From positions 2,496,001-2,560,000 of the forward strand of contig OZ241875.1 in the NCBI GenBank assembly GCA_965203325.1: a stretch of 64,000 nucleotides of DNA, given 5' to 3'. This DNA is from a bacterium (GTDB lineage: Bacteria; UBA8248). How positions within the stretch are numbered: position 1 is the stretch's first letter; each line of letters opens with the position of its first letter. The notes under the pieces were generated by a model. It was given only the letters and a program-made list of their open reading frames with translations. It had not been told where the DNA came from and did no database searches. The position numbers and the translations under genes are program-made. This document shows positions 57,569 through 64,000 of the stretch, in pieces.

Positions 57569-57655
57569 GGACGCATATTTGATGCCGGACGTATGCGATT
57601 TGATTACGGATCGTCCATATCCTCCGGCCTGTGCCACGATTTCCTGGGAGTCCCC

Positions 57656-58837
57656 ATGCCGAAAAGAAGCGAACGCAAGCTTACCAAACGCGTGGTCGAT
57701 GCGCTATCCGTCGAGACGAACGACGCCGTCTTCTGGGACCGGGAGCTGGCGGGCTTCGGAGTGCGGGTCTACGCCACGGGCCGGAAGGTCTACGTGGTGC
57801 AGTCACGGGGTCCGTGGGGTCCCAAACGCGTGGCGCTGGGCAAACACGGCGAGATGTCCACTGATGAGGCGAGGAAGACGGCGGCCGGCGTCATCGACCG
57901 CATCAAGCGGGGCGAGGAGCCCGAGCCCAAGCCGCCCGAGGCGGCGCCCACGGTGGAGGGGCTTGCCGGGCGTTTCATGCGCGACCATGCCGAAACGCAC
58001 TGCAAGCCCGACACCGTCAGACTGTACAGTTCCCTGCTCGGGAACCACATCGTTCCGGCGCTGGGCGGGACCAGGCTCGCCGATGTCGGCCGTGCGGAGG
58101 TATCGGAGTTGCACCACCGGTTGCGTGAGACGCCCGCCGTGGCCAACGCGGTGGCGGGCCTTCTCTCCAGAATGTTCAAGATGGCCGAGGCGTGGGGACT
58201 GGTTCCGCCCGGGGAGAACCCGTGCCGGGGGCTGCGCCGCTACCGGACGCGCAAGCGCGAGCGGTTCCTGACGCCAGAGGAGTTCCGCCGCCTGGGCCGG
58301 GCGCTCAGGGAGATTGAGGCCGAGGGGAATGCGTGGCCGGCCGCGGCCGCGGCGATCAGGCTCCTGGCGCTGACCGGGTGCAGGCGGGGCGAGATACTGG
58401 ATCTGAGGTGGGACGACGTGGACCGCACGACGGGTGAACTCAGGCTCCGGGACGCCAAGGCGGGCCCGCGCATGGCGCCCCTGACCAAACCCGTATCGAG
58501 GGTGCTGGAGGGGATCCCCCGCTTGTCGGACAACCCCTGGGTGATCTCTTCAAGGCATGGGAGGGGCCGCCTGGGGAACCTCTCCTACTACTGGGGGGCC
58601 GTGAGGGAGCGGGCGGGGCTTCATGATGTCCGCATTCATGACCTTCGGCACTCGTACGCCAGCCGGGCGCTGGCGCTAAACGAGAGTCTGTCCGCGATCG
58701 GCAGGCTGCTCGGACACCATCACGTGGTGAGCACGGCGCGCTACGCGCACCTGATGCGGGACGCCGAGAAGGCGGCGGCCGCCCGGGTGGGCGAGAGCAT
58801 CGGCGTCCACGTCACGAACGGGAGGATGGAGCGATGA
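57656..58837 (+). CDS. Tyrosine integrase with N-terminal arm-DNA-binding (DUF4102-like) domain
   Basis: WDRELAGFGVRV; catalytic TGCRRGE, HDLRH, LLGH..TARY; GGGAG RBS. Confidence 0.9.
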   Translation: MPKRSERKLTKRVVDALSVETNDAVFWDRELAGFGVRVYATGRKVYVVQSRGPWGPKRVALGKHGEMSTDEARKTAAGVIDRIKRGEEPEPKPPEAAPTVEGLAGRFMRDHAETHCKPDTVRLYSSLLGNHIVPALGGTRLADVGRAEVSELHHRLRETPAVANAVAGLLSRMFKMAEAWGLVPPGENPCRGLRRYRTRKRERFLTPEEFRRLGRALREIEAEGNAWPAAAAAIRLLALTGCRRGEILDLRWDDVDRTTGELRLRDAKAGPRMAPLTKPVSRVLEGIPRLSDNPWVISSRHGRGRLGNLSYYWGAVRERAGLHDVRIHDLRHSYASRALALNESLSAIGRLLGHHHVVSTARYAHLMRDAEKAAAARVGESIGVHVTNGRMER

Positions 58838-60000
58838 CGAAGCCCGCCATGAAAACGCTATCGAACCGGCTGGTGAGGAAACTCACTGTCGAGAAGGACA
58901 CTGTTTTCTGGGACCGCGATCTGACCGGCTTCGGGGTCCGGGTCTATCCCACCGGCTCAAAAGTCTACATCGCCCAGGCGCGGGGTCCCGAGGGCCCCAA
59001 ACGCGTGGCGGTGGGCCGCCACGGCGTTATCCATGCGGAGGAGGCCAGGAAGCGCGCGGCGCTCGTCATCGCGCGCATCAAGGCGGGCGAGGAACCTGTG
59101 CCCGAGCCGATGAAGCCGGCCTGCGGTCCCACGGTGGCCGGGCTGGCGAGGCGCTATCTCGAAGAATACGTTTCCGTGCGGTGCAAGCCGCGCACCGTGA
59201 AGACGCTCCGCTCCGTGGTCGGCAGGAACATCGTCCCGGCGCTGGGCGCAATGCCGATATCCGCGGTCGAGCGCAAACACGTGGCGGAACTCCACGGGCG
59301 GCTGAGCGCCACGCCCGCGTCGGCGAACCATGCCGTCCGGGCGCTGTCCGCGATGTACCGCCTCGCAGGTGAATGGGGTCTCGTGCCCGAGGGCATGAAC
59401 CCGTGCCGCGCCATCGCCGAATACCCGGTCGGCCGGCGGGAGCGCTTCCTCACCGAGGCGGAATTCGACCGACTGGGACGCGCACTCGACAAAGTCGAGA
59501 CGGAGGGCGGCGCGTCCGCGTCAGCCGTGGCCGCCATCCGTCTCCTGATGCTGACCGGGTGCCGGAAGTCGGAAATCCTCACGCTGCGCTGGGAGGAGGT
59601 GACGCTCGATCAGGCGGAACTGCGGCTCACCGACTCCAAGACGGGCGCACGCGTCGTTTCGCTCTCGGAGCCCGCGGTGAAACTCCTCGCGGGTCTGCCG
59701 CGCACCCCCGGGGATCCCTGGGTCATTCCCGGTAGGAAGCCGGGAACGCACCTGCGGAAGCTCGACGACGCCTGGCAGGCCGTCCGCTCGCGTGCGGGGC
59801 TCGCCGACATGCGCCTCCATGACCTGCGCCATTCGTTCGCATCGCGCGCTCTCGCGCTCGGCGAGGGACTTTCTGTGATAGGCAAACTCCTTGGCCACGC
59901 CAGGATCGAGACCACCTCGCGCTACGCCCATCTCGCGCGCGATTCGGTGCGCGAATCAGCCGAGCGGGTCGCCGAGAGCATCGCCGAAGACATGCTGTAG
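58834..60000 (+). CDS. Second tyrosine integrase, paralog of the first, translationally coupled
   Basis: WDRDLTGFGVRV; TGCRKSE, HDLRH, LLGH..TSRY; ATGA overlap. Confidence 0.9.
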   Translation: MTKPAMKTLSNRLVRKLTVEKDTVFWDRDLTGFGVRVYPTGSKVYIAQARGPEGPKRVAVGRHGVIHAEEARKRAALVIARIKAGEEPVPEPMKPACGPTVAGLARRYLEEYVSVRCKPRTVKTLRSVVGRNIVPALGAMPISAVERKHVAELHGRLSATPASANHAVRALSAMYRLAGEWGLVPEGMNPCRAIAEYPVGRRERFLTEAEFDRLGRALDKVETEGGASASAVAAIRLLMLTGCRKSEILTLRWEEVTLDQAELRLTDSKTGARVVSLSEPAVKLLAGLPRTPGDPWVIPGRKPGTHLRKLDDAWQAVRSRAGLADMRLHDLRHSFASRALALGEGLSVIGKLLGHARIETTSRYAHLARDSVRESAERVAESIAEDML

Positions 60001-60112
60001 GCCACCGGGCGCAACTCCCGGGAAACCCGGCCGATGATAAGCGGTTTTCCTGTATCTCAATCCCCGGCCCCGAACGGGTCTTCTCCATCGCGTTGTCTCA
60101 CGTTTTTTGTCA

Positions 60113-60185
60113 TACCCCTACGCGCGCTACCGTGTGAGCGGGACGTTCTCGCTCTGGGGCGCGGTGGGCCACGGGCAGGGGGAGA
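60113..60185 (+). repeat. 73-bp copy of an internal piece of the autotransporter beta-domain gene
   Basis: Identical to 37539-37611; one mismatch to 63734-63806. Confidence 0.9.
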
Positions 60186-60190
60186 CGTCG

Positions 60191-60417
60191 ATGAACGCGC
60201 GGGGGAGAACCACCTGAACACGCGGGAGGCGGCCGCCTGGCTCGGCCTCTCGCCCAAGACGCTGGAGCGCTACCGCGTGAGCGGAGAGGGACCGGATTTT
60301 CTTCGCACCGGATACCGGGTGCGCTACCTGCTCGAAGACCTCGAGAAGTGGGCCTCCGCCCGGAGGTGGACTTCCACGTCCGAGGAGAGAGCCGCCCGGA
60401 GGAGGAAGAGGCGGTAG
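60191..60417 (+). CDS. Excisionase-like HTH (MerR/HTH_17) protein; start uncertain, ATG 60191 is out of frame by one base at a G5 run
   Basis: LNTREAAAWLGLSPKTLERYRVSGEGPDF...VRY..EDLEKW. Confidence 0.75.
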
Positions 60418-60499
60418 AGGGATATTCGGGAGAAGACGGGCGTCCTGCACGCGGCGGACCTCCCGGGAACCAGGGACATGCTCACGACGAAACGCCGGA

Positions 60500-60809
60500 T
60501 GGCCTCACAGGCCGTAGCGCAGCCTCGCCATCGCGGCCACGGCCGCCGAGTGCCCCCCTCGTAGATATCCCCCAGGTACGCCGCTATCCCGGCGTCGGTC
60601 TCGGGGTTTCCCGAGCGCTCGAATCCCCTGAGCGCCGTCTCGTACACTCGCCGCGTGTTCTCAGACATCGACGCCTTCGCCAGGTCGGCGGCCGCACGGG
60701 CCGGTCGGGCCGGCCTCCTCGTCAAAGCGATGTCCTGCGTCGGGTCGGATGGTCTTGCCCCCGTCGTCATGGCGAGAAGCCAACCTTCCAGATCGGCGAC
60801 CGTGTCCAT
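60500..60809 (-). pseudogene. N-terminal fragment of a Cre-like tyrosine recombinase (catalytic domain absent)
   Basis: ASMSENTRRVYETALRGF..DAGIAAYLGDIYEGG; after a G-run frameshift it continues HSAAVAAMA and then similarity ends. Confidence 0.6.
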
Positions 60810-60917
60810 TGCCTAGGGCCGCCCGAGCGCCTCCTTGATTGCCAAGTATGGACGACGACGGGGAATTTCCATAAAAAAAGCCGTTTCGCAAACGAATACC
60901 GGCGAAACGGCGGGTTT

Positions 60918-61130
60918 CTGGAGTCCGATAATTGCCATTATCGGAAAACATAACACCTCTGAAAGCCATGTCAAGCGCGATTTCGGGGTCCCCGGAGGGG
61001 TTTCGGGCGCCTTTTTGCGTCTTTTTTCGCTCATGTTTCGCTCATTTGCGGCCCGAATGCGCCCCGAAACGGGTTTTTCGGCGGAAAACAAGGCTTCTGG
61101 GGGCCAATAATGGCAATTAGCGGACACCAG
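60918..61130. promoter_or_regulatory. Candidate invertible promoter: inverted lox/dif-like sites flanking a sigma70 promoter
   Basis: 27-bp inverted repeats with 3 mismatches (60918-60944 / 61104-61130) sharing the TTGCCA spacer; internal minus-strand TTGACA-16 bp-TATGTT with extended TG. Confidence 0.6.
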
Positions 61131-61237
61131 CCCGGGTTCGAGGTGGGCGCATACCGCAGGAACATGTGTCTCGCGGAAAGACTCACTACCGGCTGCGTCA
61201 GCTTGAACCCGAAATCACGGAACAGGGGGCATTCCAA

Positions 61238-64000
61238 ATGAAGAACATTGCACGGATTTCGATGCTGCCGGCGGCGGCGTTCTGCAGCGCGGCCCGGCGG
61301 CGTGAAGTGCGCCCCGCCGGAGTGCGCGAGCCGGCTTCTCCGACGGGATCATACCAGCGGTCTGACCCGCGTCCCGGGCGCTTCCGCGCCCGCCTCTTCG
61401 GTCTCCTCCCCGTCCTTGCGTTGCTGGTAGGCGCCCTGTTCCTCCTCACCGCCGCGCCGGTCGAGGCACAGACCAAGACCTTCTCCATCACCGAGAGAGC
61501 CCGCGCTGCGGAGGGTGCCAGCGCCTCCCTGACTATCACCCTGAGCGAGGACGCGCCAAGCGCCGGGGTCGCGTTCACGGTCACCGCCGGATTCGGCGGT
61601 TCGTCGACCGCAGAGGCGGCGGACGTGATGTCCATCGACTCGCCGGTGACAATTCCCAGCGGCACCAGGAGCCTGAGTATCGCAATTCCCCTGACCGACG
61701 ACGACATGGATGAGGACGAGGAGACTTTCACTGTCACTATCGCCACTACGGCCGAGGGCTGGATGAAGGAAGGGGATGGCAAGGATACTGCCGTGGTCTC
61801 CATCGACGACGACGACAACGCCGGAGTCAACCTCATCGGTGTCAGTACCATCAGTAACGATAAGGGCCCAAAGATCGGGCATCTCAACGTGTACCAAAAC
61901 ACTCCGGCGACCTACCAAGTGGTGCTGACCAGCCGGCCGGTTGCGGATGTGACCATCAATGTGTCTGCGACGATGTGGAACAGTGTGTCCCCGGCGTCGC
62001 ACACCTTCGCCGCGAGTTCCGCGAATGACTGGAGGGAGCCGAAGGAGTTCACCGTAACTGCCGGTAGTCGCATCGGTAGTGCGCTCATCCTTCACACCGT
62101 GACAACTAGCGACCCCAACTACGGCACTCTTCAGTACAGCGACTGGTCTCACACTTCCAACAAACTACTACTGGACATCCGACCGCCCTTGCCGATGCCG
62201 ACTCGCCTGACGCTGCGCGCCGATCGCCTGCCGGCCGAGGGCGAAGGGGCAGTGACGGTGACGGCGACGCTGGACAATCCAGCGCCCTGGAGCGGCACGA
62301 CGGTCAGGCTCACCCTCTCGGGCACAGCCGCTGGTGAAGGAACCGACTACACGCTGTCGTCGACCACGATCAGCATCGGTGCAGCCCAGACGACCGGGAC
62401 GACGACCATCACGGTCACCGACGACAGCGCGGACGACGACGACGAGACCATCGTGCTGGAGGCGAGCAGCGGTAACCCGGAGCTGACTTCAAACAAGCTG
62501 ACGCTGACCATTGAGGACAACGACCAGACGGCGCAGCAGCAGCGCACGGAGCCGCTGACGGCGGCGTTCGAGCGGGCGCCGGCGGCGCATGACGGCACGG
62601 AGACGTTCCGGTTCAACGTGCGCTTCAGCGAGGCGCTGGGCGAGACCGCGAACGCCCCAGAGGTCGCCTCGTTCGCCGTGCGGGGCGGCAAGGTGAAGCG
62701 CGTGCGAAAGGTGGAGTCCGGCCTGTGGCGGGTGCGCATCGCGCCGAAGTCGTGGAAGGACGTGACGGTGACGCTGGCGGGCGGCCGCGCCTGCGATGAG
62801 GCGGGCGCGGTGTGCACGGCCGACGGGAGGTCCGTGTCGAACACGTCGACGATGACCATCGGCGGCCCGGTGCGGATCCGGGTCGAGGGCGCCCGGGCGA
62901 AGGAAGGCAGGGACGCATCGCTCGACTTCGCGGTGACGCTCAACCGCGCGGCGGCGCACGAGGTCTCGGTGGACTATGAGACCGCCGACGAGACGGCGAC
63001 GGCGGGGGCCGACTACACGGCGGTCTCCGGCACGCTGACCTTCGCGGCCGGCGAGACGGCGAAGACGGTCTCGGTCCCTGTGCTCGACGACGCCATCGAC
63101 GAGGGCAAGGAGGTCATGCGGCTCCTGCTCTCGAACCCGCAGGGGGCGTTCCTGCGAGGCGTGCACACCAAGGCGCGGGGGGTCATCCGCAACGACGACC
63201 CGCTGCAAAGGATGTGGCTCGCGCGCTTCGGGCGCGCGGCGGCGGGCCACGTCGCCGAGGCGATTGAAGGACGCCTTTCGGACGCCGCCGCGGGCGTCGT
63301 GCTGGGCGGCCACAGCCTCTCAGGCGGGCCGGAGCGCGAGGCCATCGAGTCGCGCCTCGCCGAGGCCCTCCTCAAGGAGAGGGAGGTCCGGCTCGGGCGC
63401 GGCGGGGAGGCGCCGGCGCCTTCGGTGCGCGAGGTCGCGATGTCCGACCTCCTCCTCGCGAGTTCGTTTCATATGGCCTCGGCGGAGAAGGTGGACGCCG
63501 GCTCGCGCTGGTCGCTGTGGGGCCGGGGCGCGCGCTCCTCGTTCGAGGGCGTCGAGGGTGATCTCTCGCTGGAGGGCGACGTGACGACGGCGACCGTGGG
63601 CTTCGACTACGAGCGGGCGCGCTGGCTGGTGGGCGTGGCGCTCTCGCGAAGCGCGGGCGACGGCTCGTACAAGGCGGGCGGCGCGTGCGATACGGGCTGC
63701 GCGGGCGAGGTGGAGAGCACGCTTACGGGTGTCTACCCCTACGCGCGCTACCGTGTGAGCGGGACGTTCTCGCTCTGGGGCGCTGTGGGCCACGGGCAGG
63801 GGGAGATGACGCTCACGCCCGGGGGGTCGTCCCCGGTGGAGGCCGACGTCGCGATGGGCATGGCGGCGGCCGGGGCGCGCGGGGTCGTTCTGCCCGCGCG
63901 CGAGGCGGGCGGGTTCGAGCTCGCGCTCCGCGCGGACGTCCTGGTGACGAACACGCGCTCGGACGCTGCGGCGGGCCTGGCGGAGACCGAGGCGCAGACG
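61238..64000 (+). CDS. Large surface protein with Calx-beta-like repeats and a C-terminal autotransporter beta-domain (3' end outside window)
   Basis: ATG 61238; signal peptide LLPVLALLVGALFLLTAAPVEA|Q; DDDMDEDEETFTV and ATAGADY..GTLTFAAGETAKTVSVPVLDDAIDEG motifs; same frame at both ends, no stop seen. Confidence 0.85.
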   Translation, partial: MKNIARISMLPAAAFCSAARRREVRPAGVREPASPTGSYQRSDPRPGRFRARLFGLLPVLALLVGALFLLTAAPVEAQTKTFSITERARAAEGASASLTITLSEDAPSAGVAFTVTAGFGGSSTAEAADVMSIDSPVTIPSGTRSLSIAIPLTDDDMDEDEETFTVTIATTAEGWMKEGDGKDTAVVSIDDDDNAGVNLIGVSTISNDKGPKIGHLNVYQNTPATYQVVLTSRPVADVTINVSATMWNSVSPASHTFAASSANDWREPKEFTVTAGSRIGSALILHTVTTSDPNYGTLQYSDWSHTSNKLLLDIRPPLPMPTRLTLRADRLPAEGEGAVTVTATLDNPAPWSGTTVRLTLSGTAAGEGTDYTLSSTTISIGAAQTTGTTTITVTDDSADDDDETIVLEASSGNPELTSNKLTLTIEDNDQTAQQQRTEPLTAAFERAPAAHDGTETFRFNVRFSEALGETANAPEVASFAVRGGKVKRVRKVESGLWRVRIAPKSWKDVTVTLAGGRACDEAGAVCTADGRSVSNTSTMTIGGPVRIRVEGARAKEGRDASLDFAVTLNRAAAHEVSVDYETADETATAGADYTAVSGTLTFAAGETAKTVSVPVLDDAIDEGKEVMRLLLSNPQGAFLRGVHTKARGVIRNDDPLQRMWLARFGRAAAGHVAEAIEGRLSDAAAGVVLGGHSLSGGPEREAIESRLAEALLKEREVRLGRGGEAPAPSVREVAMSDLLLASSFHMASAEKVDAGSRWSLWGRGARSSFEGVEGDLSLEGDVTTATVGFDYERARWLVGVALSRSAGDGSYKAGGACDTGCAGEVESTLTGVYPYARYRVSGTFSLWGAVGHGQGEMTLTPGGSSPVEADVAMGMAAAGARGVVLPAREAGGFELALRADVLVTNTRSDAAAGLAETEAQT

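Follow-up and report, generated by a model that had tools for sequence, protein, structure and literature searches.

The window analyzed in this work is a 64,000-nt stretch of contig OZ241875.1 (assembly GCA_965203325.1, positions 2,496,001 to 2,560,000) from a bacterium of the GTDB lineage UBA8248, and all coordinates below count from its first base. Near its right end, the minus strand carries an open reading frame (ORF, 60324-60809) that holds the remnant of a Cre-like recombinase gene, and the plus strand carries a gene for a Calx-beta repeat protein, probably an autotransporter adhesin. Between the two lies a short promoter-bearing segment bounded by inverted lox-like sites, here called A and B. 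A first-pass annotation had proposed that this segment is an invertible promoter, and here we describe its anatomy, the family of paralogous switches to which it belongs, and what both suggest about control of the adhesin gene.

RESULTS

Two inverted lox-like sites bound the promoter segment

Site A reads TCCGATAA-TTGCCA-TTATCGGA at 60924-60945. Site B, at 61103-61124, reads GCCAATAATGGCAATTAGCGGA, and its reverse complement, TCCGCTAA-TTGCCA-TTATTGGC, carries the same six-base core. A repeat search recovered the two as an inverted repeat with arms at 60918-60944 and 61104-61130 (27 nt, 89% complementary, 159 nt between them), bearing out the shared TTGCCA, the opposite orientation and the 27-bp repeat that the first-pass annotation had described, and the sites lie where it had placed them, with site A 115 bp from the ATG at 60809 and site B 114 bp from the adhesin ATG at 61238. 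When up to three mismatches were allowed, the site A query matched only itself (on both strands) and site B (minus strand) in the 64-kb window, and it had no match in any of 100 dinucleotide shuffles.

Site A is a near-palindrome in which 20 of 22 positions are symmetric. The layout of palindromic arms around a 6-bp spacer stands as annotated, with the refinement that the asymmetry is confined to two positions of the core. Since the site is nearly palindromic, its orientation is set by the core together with the non-identical arms. Read as 34-bp sites of the 13-8-13 type (Table 1), three of the four arms have CTGGnnnCCnnTA in common. The outer (left) arm of site A is a good arm, while its inner arm, on the promoter side, keeps only the seven core-proximal bases, its outer part being the -10 hexamer of the promoter. 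We considered whether this degenerate arm could impose a directional bias of the LE/RE type and rejected the idea, as either orientation leaves the weak arm on exactly one site.

Sixteen paralogous switches occur in two orientations

A fuzzy search of the whole genome (4.39 Mb, a single contig) with site A recovered 16 paralogous switches, the window copy among them, whose site starts are exactly 179 bp apart; 14 pairs were found at the first pass, and two with a more diverged partner site were added later. The conserved unit exceeds the repeat-bounded segment, extending over about 85 bp of flank up to the recombinase start on the left and about 60 nt of leader on the right, so that each locus can be oriented independently of its segment. 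Different left flanks occur at three loci (f1713, l2672 and m2765).

The promoter end of the segment adjoins the recombinase (left) side at 13 of the 16 loci, including the window, and the cargo (right) side at i2078, l2672 and o3869, which lie at 2.078, 2.672 and 3.869 Mb. At these three flipped loci the outer half-sites stay with their flanks (TCCGATAA on the left, TTAGCGGA or TTAACGGC on the right) and only the inner halves are exchanged, which places the breakpoints within the central ATAA-N6-TTAT of the sites. In agreement, blastn puts the middle piece of each on the opposite strand relative to both flanks. In a related genome, G012, 13 such loci were read, and one of them is flipped. With three of 16 paralogues and one of 13 loci in G012 inverted, and with breakpoints inside the sites, the DNA segment is invertible at the level of the family. 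The first-pass annotation had suggested looking in relatives for a flipped segment and an intact Cre-like gene; the paralogues hold both, and the flipped form is present in G012 as well.

The module was detected in 12 of 22 other genomes of the genus, in one of two genomes from other genera of the family, and in none of 16 more distant genomes. A further 41 loci were found through the recombinase in species-representative genomes among other metagenome-assembled genomes (MAGs), and 21 of these have a repeat pair 154-183 bp apart no more than 1 kb upstream of the recombinase gene, with the promoter facing the recombinase in 15, facing away in two and undetected in four.

Crossover cores match within loci and differ between them

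Eight core types occur at the 16 loci (TTGACG, TTGCCG, TTGATG, TTACTG, TTGTCG, TTGCTG, TTGCCA and TTGCTA), and the two cores of a pair match, in inverted orientation, at 15 of them, the remaining locus being off by one base. Random re-pairing gave a mean of 2.57 matches and a maximum of 10 in 100,000 trials, a figure that overstates the significance because the loci are related by duplication and are not independent. The 8-nt arms of paired sites, on either side, are identical at none of the 16 loci. In G012, where the search pattern left the core free, the cores match at all 13 loci and fall into 11 types. The contrast between arms and cores is still what strand exchange across a homology-dependent overlap, as established for Cre, Flp and lambda Int, would predict.

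The only switch with differing cores is n3371 (3371525/3371704), with TTGCCA at one site and TTGCCG at the other, whereas the window has TTGCCA in both; n3371 may have been caught midway in a core change, or it may be impaired. TTGACG is found in four switches (a705, i2078, o3869 and p4230), TTGCCG in three, and TTGATG, TTGCTG and TTGCCA in two each. As several cores are common to more than one switch, insulation between loci is only partial, and recombination between switches with the same core would invert or delete megabase segments.

The recombinases are Cre-type and the local copy is dead

The window ORF 60324-60809 has no Pfam match. Aligned with an intact paralogue, the remnant within it has lost 1 nt at 60559/60558 and, through an internal deletion joined at 60536/60535, a further 675 bp that included the entire catalytic domain, confirming that the local recombinase is truncated, as had been annotated. 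Six sister switches have uninterrupted recombinase ORFs of 290-326 aa, mutually 79-94% identical. The other ten loci, namely the window and nine more, lack an intact recombinase, and they include two of the three flipped ones (l2672 and o3869), which argues that the enzymes work in trans. With the local gene dead, flipping at the window would likewise need a paralogue acting in trans.

The intact recombinase at g1827 matches Pfam Phage_integrase (3e-17), and its top matches in the PDB are Cre and the engineered Tre (17 of 19 matches, 1.7e-14 to 2.2e-12; residues 57-309 against Cre 66-338), followed by XerC-like proteins (3e-6) and XerA (1.6e-3). Its stretches LLRVSE, RRSKT, GHSLRVG, GRW and GRY align with the equivalent stretches of Cre, which we take to hold the catalytic residues. 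No NCBIfam model reaches its cut-off for the recombinase, FimB/E-type models giving only E values of 8e-4 to 3e-3. Cre is thus the best solved relative of the intact paralogues, and "Cre-like" is a fair name for the family, judging from these alignments. The fallback offered by the first-pass annotation, in which the site would be only res-like and the gene a dead resolvase, can be set aside, as the enzyme is a tyrosine recombinase. Named homologues of the recombinase come from MAGs labelled Nitrospinota/Nitrospinae, Binatia, Entotheonella/Tectimicrobiota, Dehalococcoidia, Terriglobia, Vicinamibacterales, Longimicrobiales and Rhodobacteraceae.

Twenty-one public sequencing runs, none of them recorded as RNA, were listed for the stretch, and four of them (X1-X4) were compared as short Logan contigs. 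In X1, a 144-nt contig crosses site A (60907-61050) and a 75-nt contig crosses site B (61062-61136), each matching the orientation of the assembly. The contigs of X1-X4, which cannot show minority forms, contain no strand-changing joint, and loose ends at 60934 in X3 and X4 resemble the core of a paralogue. One X1 contig skips 105 nt (60631-60737) of the recombinase remnant, within the part that codes for the N-terminus. The equivalent of 60695-60802 is missing in i2078, and this stretch is variably present among the paralogues. The contig may come from a paralogue or from a strain variant.

Beyond these runs, a locus-specific 26-mer from the adhesin gene had no match in the metagenome collection. 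A 16-mer of the conserved leader, a pattern too short to be specific, gave at least 118 matches there, mostly from unrelated habitats, and among 80 of these loci that were inspected there was one weak motif match, which is not a family member. Sponge metagenomes are among the runs with a small share of the stretch, which is a hint only.

The promoter faces a conserved putative terminator

A consensus scan of 60600-61400 found one sigma-70-like site, located inside the segment and with 10 of 12 consensus matches. It is now directed leftward, away from the adhesin gene, in line with the near-consensus, left-pointing promoter of the first-pass annotation. The -35 hexamer TTGACA is identical in all 16 aligned switches. 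The -10 hexamer, which overlaps the degenerate arm, varies among them (TATGTT, TATATT, TAAATT, TTAACT, TACGTT and others), so the switches may differ in their ON-state strength; in the alignment, the -10 and the promoter spacer of the window have changes absent from the other 15 copies.

On the OFF-state transcript, a predicted intrinsic terminator starts 12 nt beyond site A (minimum free energy -32.8 kcal/mol, z -3.15, with none of 200 shuffles as stable). The same hairpin is found in 11 of the 16 switches and variant hairpins with a T7-8 run in four more, so that the T run is kept in 15 and f1713 alone lacks the structure. Two loci without a trace of a recombinase gene, l2672 and m2765, still have the T run and a variant hairpin. 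As the terminator is kept at such loci, we assign it to the switch, as its stop on the OFF side, rather than to the recombinase gene. The annotated idea that the promoter toggles between the Cre-like and adhesin genes is therefore the part we would revise, since a conserved putative terminator separates site A from the recombinase gene: in the OFF state that gene is probably not driven by the promoter, which more likely fires into a dead end. A conserved block just upstream of the recombinase gene, missed by the consensus scan and reading TTGGAA/TATACT in some paralogues, may serve the recombinase as a weak promoter of its own.

Inside the segment, three right-facing matches to a hairpin followed by a T run were found (60982-61032), against 1.2 expected from shuffles. 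In the present orientation these predicted hairpins would stop transcripts arriving from the left before they enter the adhesin gene. The same scan of 60600-61400 found no consensus promoter in the adhesin leader.

Table 1. Features of the switch and its surroundings, in window coordinates
Feature	Position	Strand	Details
Site A, 34-bp lox-like, 13-8-13	60918..60951		CTGGAGTCCGATA / ATTGCCAT / TATCGGAAAACAT
Site A core	60932-60937		TTGCCA
Site B, 34-bp lox-like, inverted	61097..61130		reverse complement CTGGTGTCCGCTA / ATTGCCAT / TATTGGCCCCCAG
Site B core	61111-61116		TGGCAA on the plus strand
Invertible segment	60935..61113		179 bp, core center to core center; highly conserved in the alignment of 16 paralogous switches
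Invertible promoter (predicted)	60947..60974	-	-35 TTGACA 60974-60969, 16-nt spacer, TG, -10 TATGTT 60952-60947
Intrinsic terminator (predicted)	60873..60911	-	stem GCCGUUUCGC...GCGAAACGGC then U7; between site A and recombinase gene
Terminator-like hairpins and T runs (predicted)	60982..61032	+	inside the segment, right-facing; region conserved
Candidate weak recombinase promoter	60845..60872	-	ATGGAA, 16 nt, CATACT; conserved block
Cre-like recombinase remnant	60505..60809	-	N-terminal ~85 codons, last 9 codons and stop
Adhesin-gene leader	61125..61237	+	113 nt; first ~60 nt conserved across both cargo classes
Calx-beta repeat protein, probable autotransporter adhesin	61238..64000	+	ORF continues to 64603, 1121 aa
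5'-truncated HTH_17 (excisionase-like) gene copy	60183..60417	+	full gene 239 aa; within ORF 60034-60417
Orphan autotransporter barrel-coding fragment	60108..60183	+	~92% identical to 63730-63825 and 8 other genome copies

The switches precede genes for giant surface proteins or lipoproteins

The predicted adhesin has three stretches that match Calx-beta (E 1.5e-29) and, judged by eye, a signal-like N-terminus. Its C-terminal 420 aa have no match in Pfam at E 5 or in NCBIfam at E 1, and a phmmer search of the C-terminal region against the PDB returned nothing relevant. Indirect evidence comes from several comparisons. In language-model (Atlas) features the score is 0.97 to PF03797 clusters, whose share of members with this domain reaches 100%, for 29 of 30 matches. 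The protein has 207 homologues at E <=1e-3, and PF03797 is present in 20 of the 120 listed and Calx-beta in many of them; those named come from MAGs labelled Nitrospinota or Nitrospinae. The translocator of type Va autotransporters is a C-terminal 12-stranded beta-barrel (PF03797). For the barrel region, AlphaFold with a 52-sequence alignment predicted an all-beta barrel of about 18 strands with a predicted local distance difference test score (pLDDT) of 82.8, against 33.5 from the single sequence. Foldseek ranked TonB-dependent receptor barrels first, with low template modeling (TM) scores, and had the beta-domains of BrkA, EspP and Hbp among its matches, with TM scores over the target of 0.47-0.58. 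These predictions make it probable that the cargo is an autotransporter with a C-terminal outer-membrane beta-barrel. The Calx-beta part of the earlier assignment holds, while its autotransporter part has indirect support and was not confirmed by profile searches.

Among the 16 switches, seven have a cargo protein that shares the N-terminus of the window adhesin, two precede another giant protein of about 1695 aa, and seven precede lipoproteins with a conserved signal peptide and lipobox (MMFKDK...LAGCGGGGG). No Pfam family was found for the lipoprotein cargos (for example, L051:2840-5128). A sub-threshold NCBIfam match of a lipoprotein cargo to a "lipo-invert putative C-terminal anchoring domain" (E 0.002) coincides with the region of the signal peptide. 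In the adhesin C-terminal part beyond the window end, residues 73-164 of L004:1112-2371 gave a phmmer match to the beta subunit of eukaryotic F-actin-capping protein (E ~0.005, 19 bits). Eukaryote-like domains are a topic of discussion in sponge symbionts, and this match is probably due to chance.

The left edge is rearranged

At ten other switches of the genome a full-length HTH_17 gene lies convergent to the recombinase gene. In the window a 75-bp barrel-coding fragment takes the place of its 5' half, with the junction at about 60183. The corresponding direct repeat (60108-60205 against 63730-63826) is 93-98 nt long and 89-92% identical. The fragment looks like a scar of rearrangement, with paralogous adhesin genes recombining, and like neither an attachment site nor a part of the switch. 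HTH_17 as a conserved accessory factor was rejected, as the gene was found at four of the 41 related loci and a single MAG record accounts for all four.

Two overlapping P4-type integrase genes (Arm-DNA-bind_3 and Phage_integrase, 57593-60000) precede the fragment. About 12 further copies of this pair are found in the genome at 73-75% identity, one partial copy reaching 87-89%, and a distance of 31-93 kb separates a copy from a switch module in nine cases. This suggests a family of large integrative elements, each with a phase-variable surface-protein gene, and the partner of the window pair seems to be the switch that lies 32 kb to its right, at 2.585 Mb.

DISCUSSION

We read the region as an inverton in its OFF orientation, with a large surface protein under phase control by DNA inversion, and we put the probability of this reading at about 0.8. 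The inverted paralogues, the covariation of cores and a promoter that faces away from the adhesin gene all support the ON/OFF switch, assembled in the OFF state, of the first-pass annotation. In the mechanism we propose, a Cre-type tyrosine recombinase would pair the two sites and exchange strands within the matching core, inverting the segment. In the OFF orientation the promoter would fire leftward through site A into the conserved terminator, and the right-facing hairpins inside the segment would keep read-through out of the adhesin gene. Inversion would direct the promoter via site B and the 113-nt leader into the Calx-beta/beta-barrel gene. The window copy would be inverted in trans by one of the six intact paralogous recombinases, which lie beside sister switches with the same arms. 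Promoter and terminator activity, trans-action and continued flipping of the window copy are what we infer, and we think it likely that this copy still flips: its sites are intact with identical cores, its promoter keeps 10 of 12 consensus positions, its cargo ORF is open, and six intact recombinases are associated with the same arm type.

Several points weigh against this reading. The duplication-related origin of the 16 loci lessens the force of the permutation result, and 13 of the copies are in one orientation, as a family of relics that rarely or never switches would also show. No flipped form of the window locus was seen in the contigs of the four runs, which drop minority variants. The only flipped relative with the same core, L227 of G012 (core TTGCCA), was considered as an orthologue of the window locus and rejected, as its flanks best match h1995 and p4230 and its passenger differs. 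The local recombinase is dead and the cross-activity of paralogues is assumed, and the promoter and terminators are consensus or folding predictions only.

Some of these points would also fit a frozen relic, a true switch by descent that no longer flips, its own recombinase being lost and the paralogous enzymes not serving it, with an adhesin gene that is permanently silent or expressed in some other way. The recombinase destroyed by a frameshift and the 675-bp deletion, the rearranged left edge of the module, the failure to find a flipped window copy, and the changes in -10 and spacer relative to the other 15 copies are all in keeping with such decay. Drift, however, should lose the match between cores, and n3371 shows that a single mismatch can arise, yet the window has kept both sites intact and their cores identical, along with a promoter that matches 10 of 12 consensus positions and an open cargo ORF of 1121 aa. 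In addition, ten of the 16 loci have no intact recombinase and these include the flipped l2672 and o3869, which is hard to explain without trans-action, and we therefore regard a frozen state as unlikely.

Explanations that dispense with programmed inversion fare much worse. A miniature inverted-repeat transposable element inserted in either orientation would account for 16 copies of fixed length with ends like terminal inverted repeats, for the different left flanks at f1713, l2672 and m2765, for two cargo classes and for carriage by MAGs labelled with many phyla. Insertion would, however, carry whole ends, whereas in the flipped copies only the inner repeat halves have moved; the conserved unit goes beyond the repeats on both sides, taking in the cargo leader on the right and the terminator and recombinase promoter region on the left, target-site duplications are absent, cores covary within pairs while arms do not, and the constant neighbor is a Cre-type recombinase and not a transposase, all of which makes this origin very improbable. 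We give slightly less credit still to the idea that the sites are operators through which a dimeric regulator, such as the HTH_17 protein, controls divergent transcription without any rearrangement. The near-perfect palindrome of site A (20 of 22), a nearby HTH_17 gene and sites that overlap or flank the promoter would suit such a regulator, but inverted segments with exchanged half-sites and locus-specific cores that match within pairs would be left unexplained, and HTH_17 is found at four of 41 related loci, whereas the recombinase and the sites travel together.

Promoter inversion by tyrosine recombinases is textbook biology. In fimS, which FimB and FimE invert to control E. coli type 1 fimbriae, inverted repeats enclose a promoter segment of a few hundred bp, giving ON/OFF control of an adhesin; its repeats are 9 bp long, and it needs IHF and Lrp. 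The switch described here resembles it in having a promoter segment within inverted repeats, an adjacent tyrosine recombinase gene, at the window a remnant, and a surface adhesin under putative ON/OFF control, and differs in its ~34-bp lox-like sites, its 179-bp segment, its multi-copy family and the predicted terminator at the OFF-side exit. IpuA and IpuB are small invertases of the FimB/FimE type, whereas the enzyme here is Cre-type. Their element ipuS, of uropathogenic E. coli, controls the autotransporter UpaE and is likewise a short promoter-bearing invertible element adjoining tyrosine recombinase genes, according to the published account (PMC6083910). The same account has ipuS inverted by four of the five recombinases of the strain, offering a precedent for trans-action, with several paralogous recombinases of one cell flipping the same element (PMC6083910). 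Compared with the three switches of E. coli CFT073, there are 16 of one family here, with locus-specific cores, and in contrast to ipuS no regulator gene lies between the switch and the adhesin gene.

The closest solved relative of the enzyme, Cre of phage P1, resolves plasmid dimers and circularizes P1, and to our knowledge it has not been described as a promoter invertase. A layout of 13-bp arms around an 8-bp asymmetric spacer fits the sites of this work as it does loxP. The arm sequences, however, are unrelated to those of loxP, and the degenerate one among the four also serves as the -10 region. Cores that match between partners and differ between loci recall the engineered heterospecific lox sites lox511 and lox2272. 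The invertible promoters of capsule and surface-protein genes in Bacteroides (Mpi, Tsr) are many per genome with few of them ON, and their recombinases serve several sites. The genome studied here is similar in having many promoter switches before genes for surface structures. Mpi, however, belongs to the serine recombinases and uses a single repeat consensus common to its targets, whereas this genome has tyrosine recombinases of the Cre type and crossover cores that vary among the switches. A full-text literature search returned no paper that treats Cre-like promoter invertases or describes invertible promoters of sponge symbionts, and the main text of the DeepInverton study contains neither "Nitrospin" nor "sponge", although its supplementary tables might list such loci (PMC11602134). 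Functionally, then, this is a switch of the fimS/ipuS type that differs in its Cre-clade enzyme, its lox-like sites and a 16-member family with locus-specific cores.

The window copy itself is a degenerate member of this family that has lost its own enzyme and whose left side is rearranged, and its present activity is putative. What the family adds to known biology is a Cre-clade enzyme used as a promoter invertase and a set of 16 switches whose cores differ between loci and yet match within them, the same trick that underlies the engineered lox variants. We tentatively propose, with slightly less than even confidence, a natural heterospecific network of lox-like sites, in which pooled Cre-type enzymes would read common arms while locus-specific cores would let promoters flip singly, and in which the module would have spread horizontally among sponge symbionts of many phyla. 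If so, the differing cores would largely prevent the recombination between switches that would scramble the chromosome. A natural set of cores, some compatible and others incompatible, on one arm type could also be a ready supply of orthogonal recombination sites. Our findings are further evidence that adhesins and lipoproteins undergo combinatorial phase variation in uncultured bacteria that apparently live with sponges. If the network exists as proposed, this uncultured bacterium would show changing combinations of about nine giant adhesins and seven lipoproteins on its surface, and such variation may bear on host recognition or on escape from phages.

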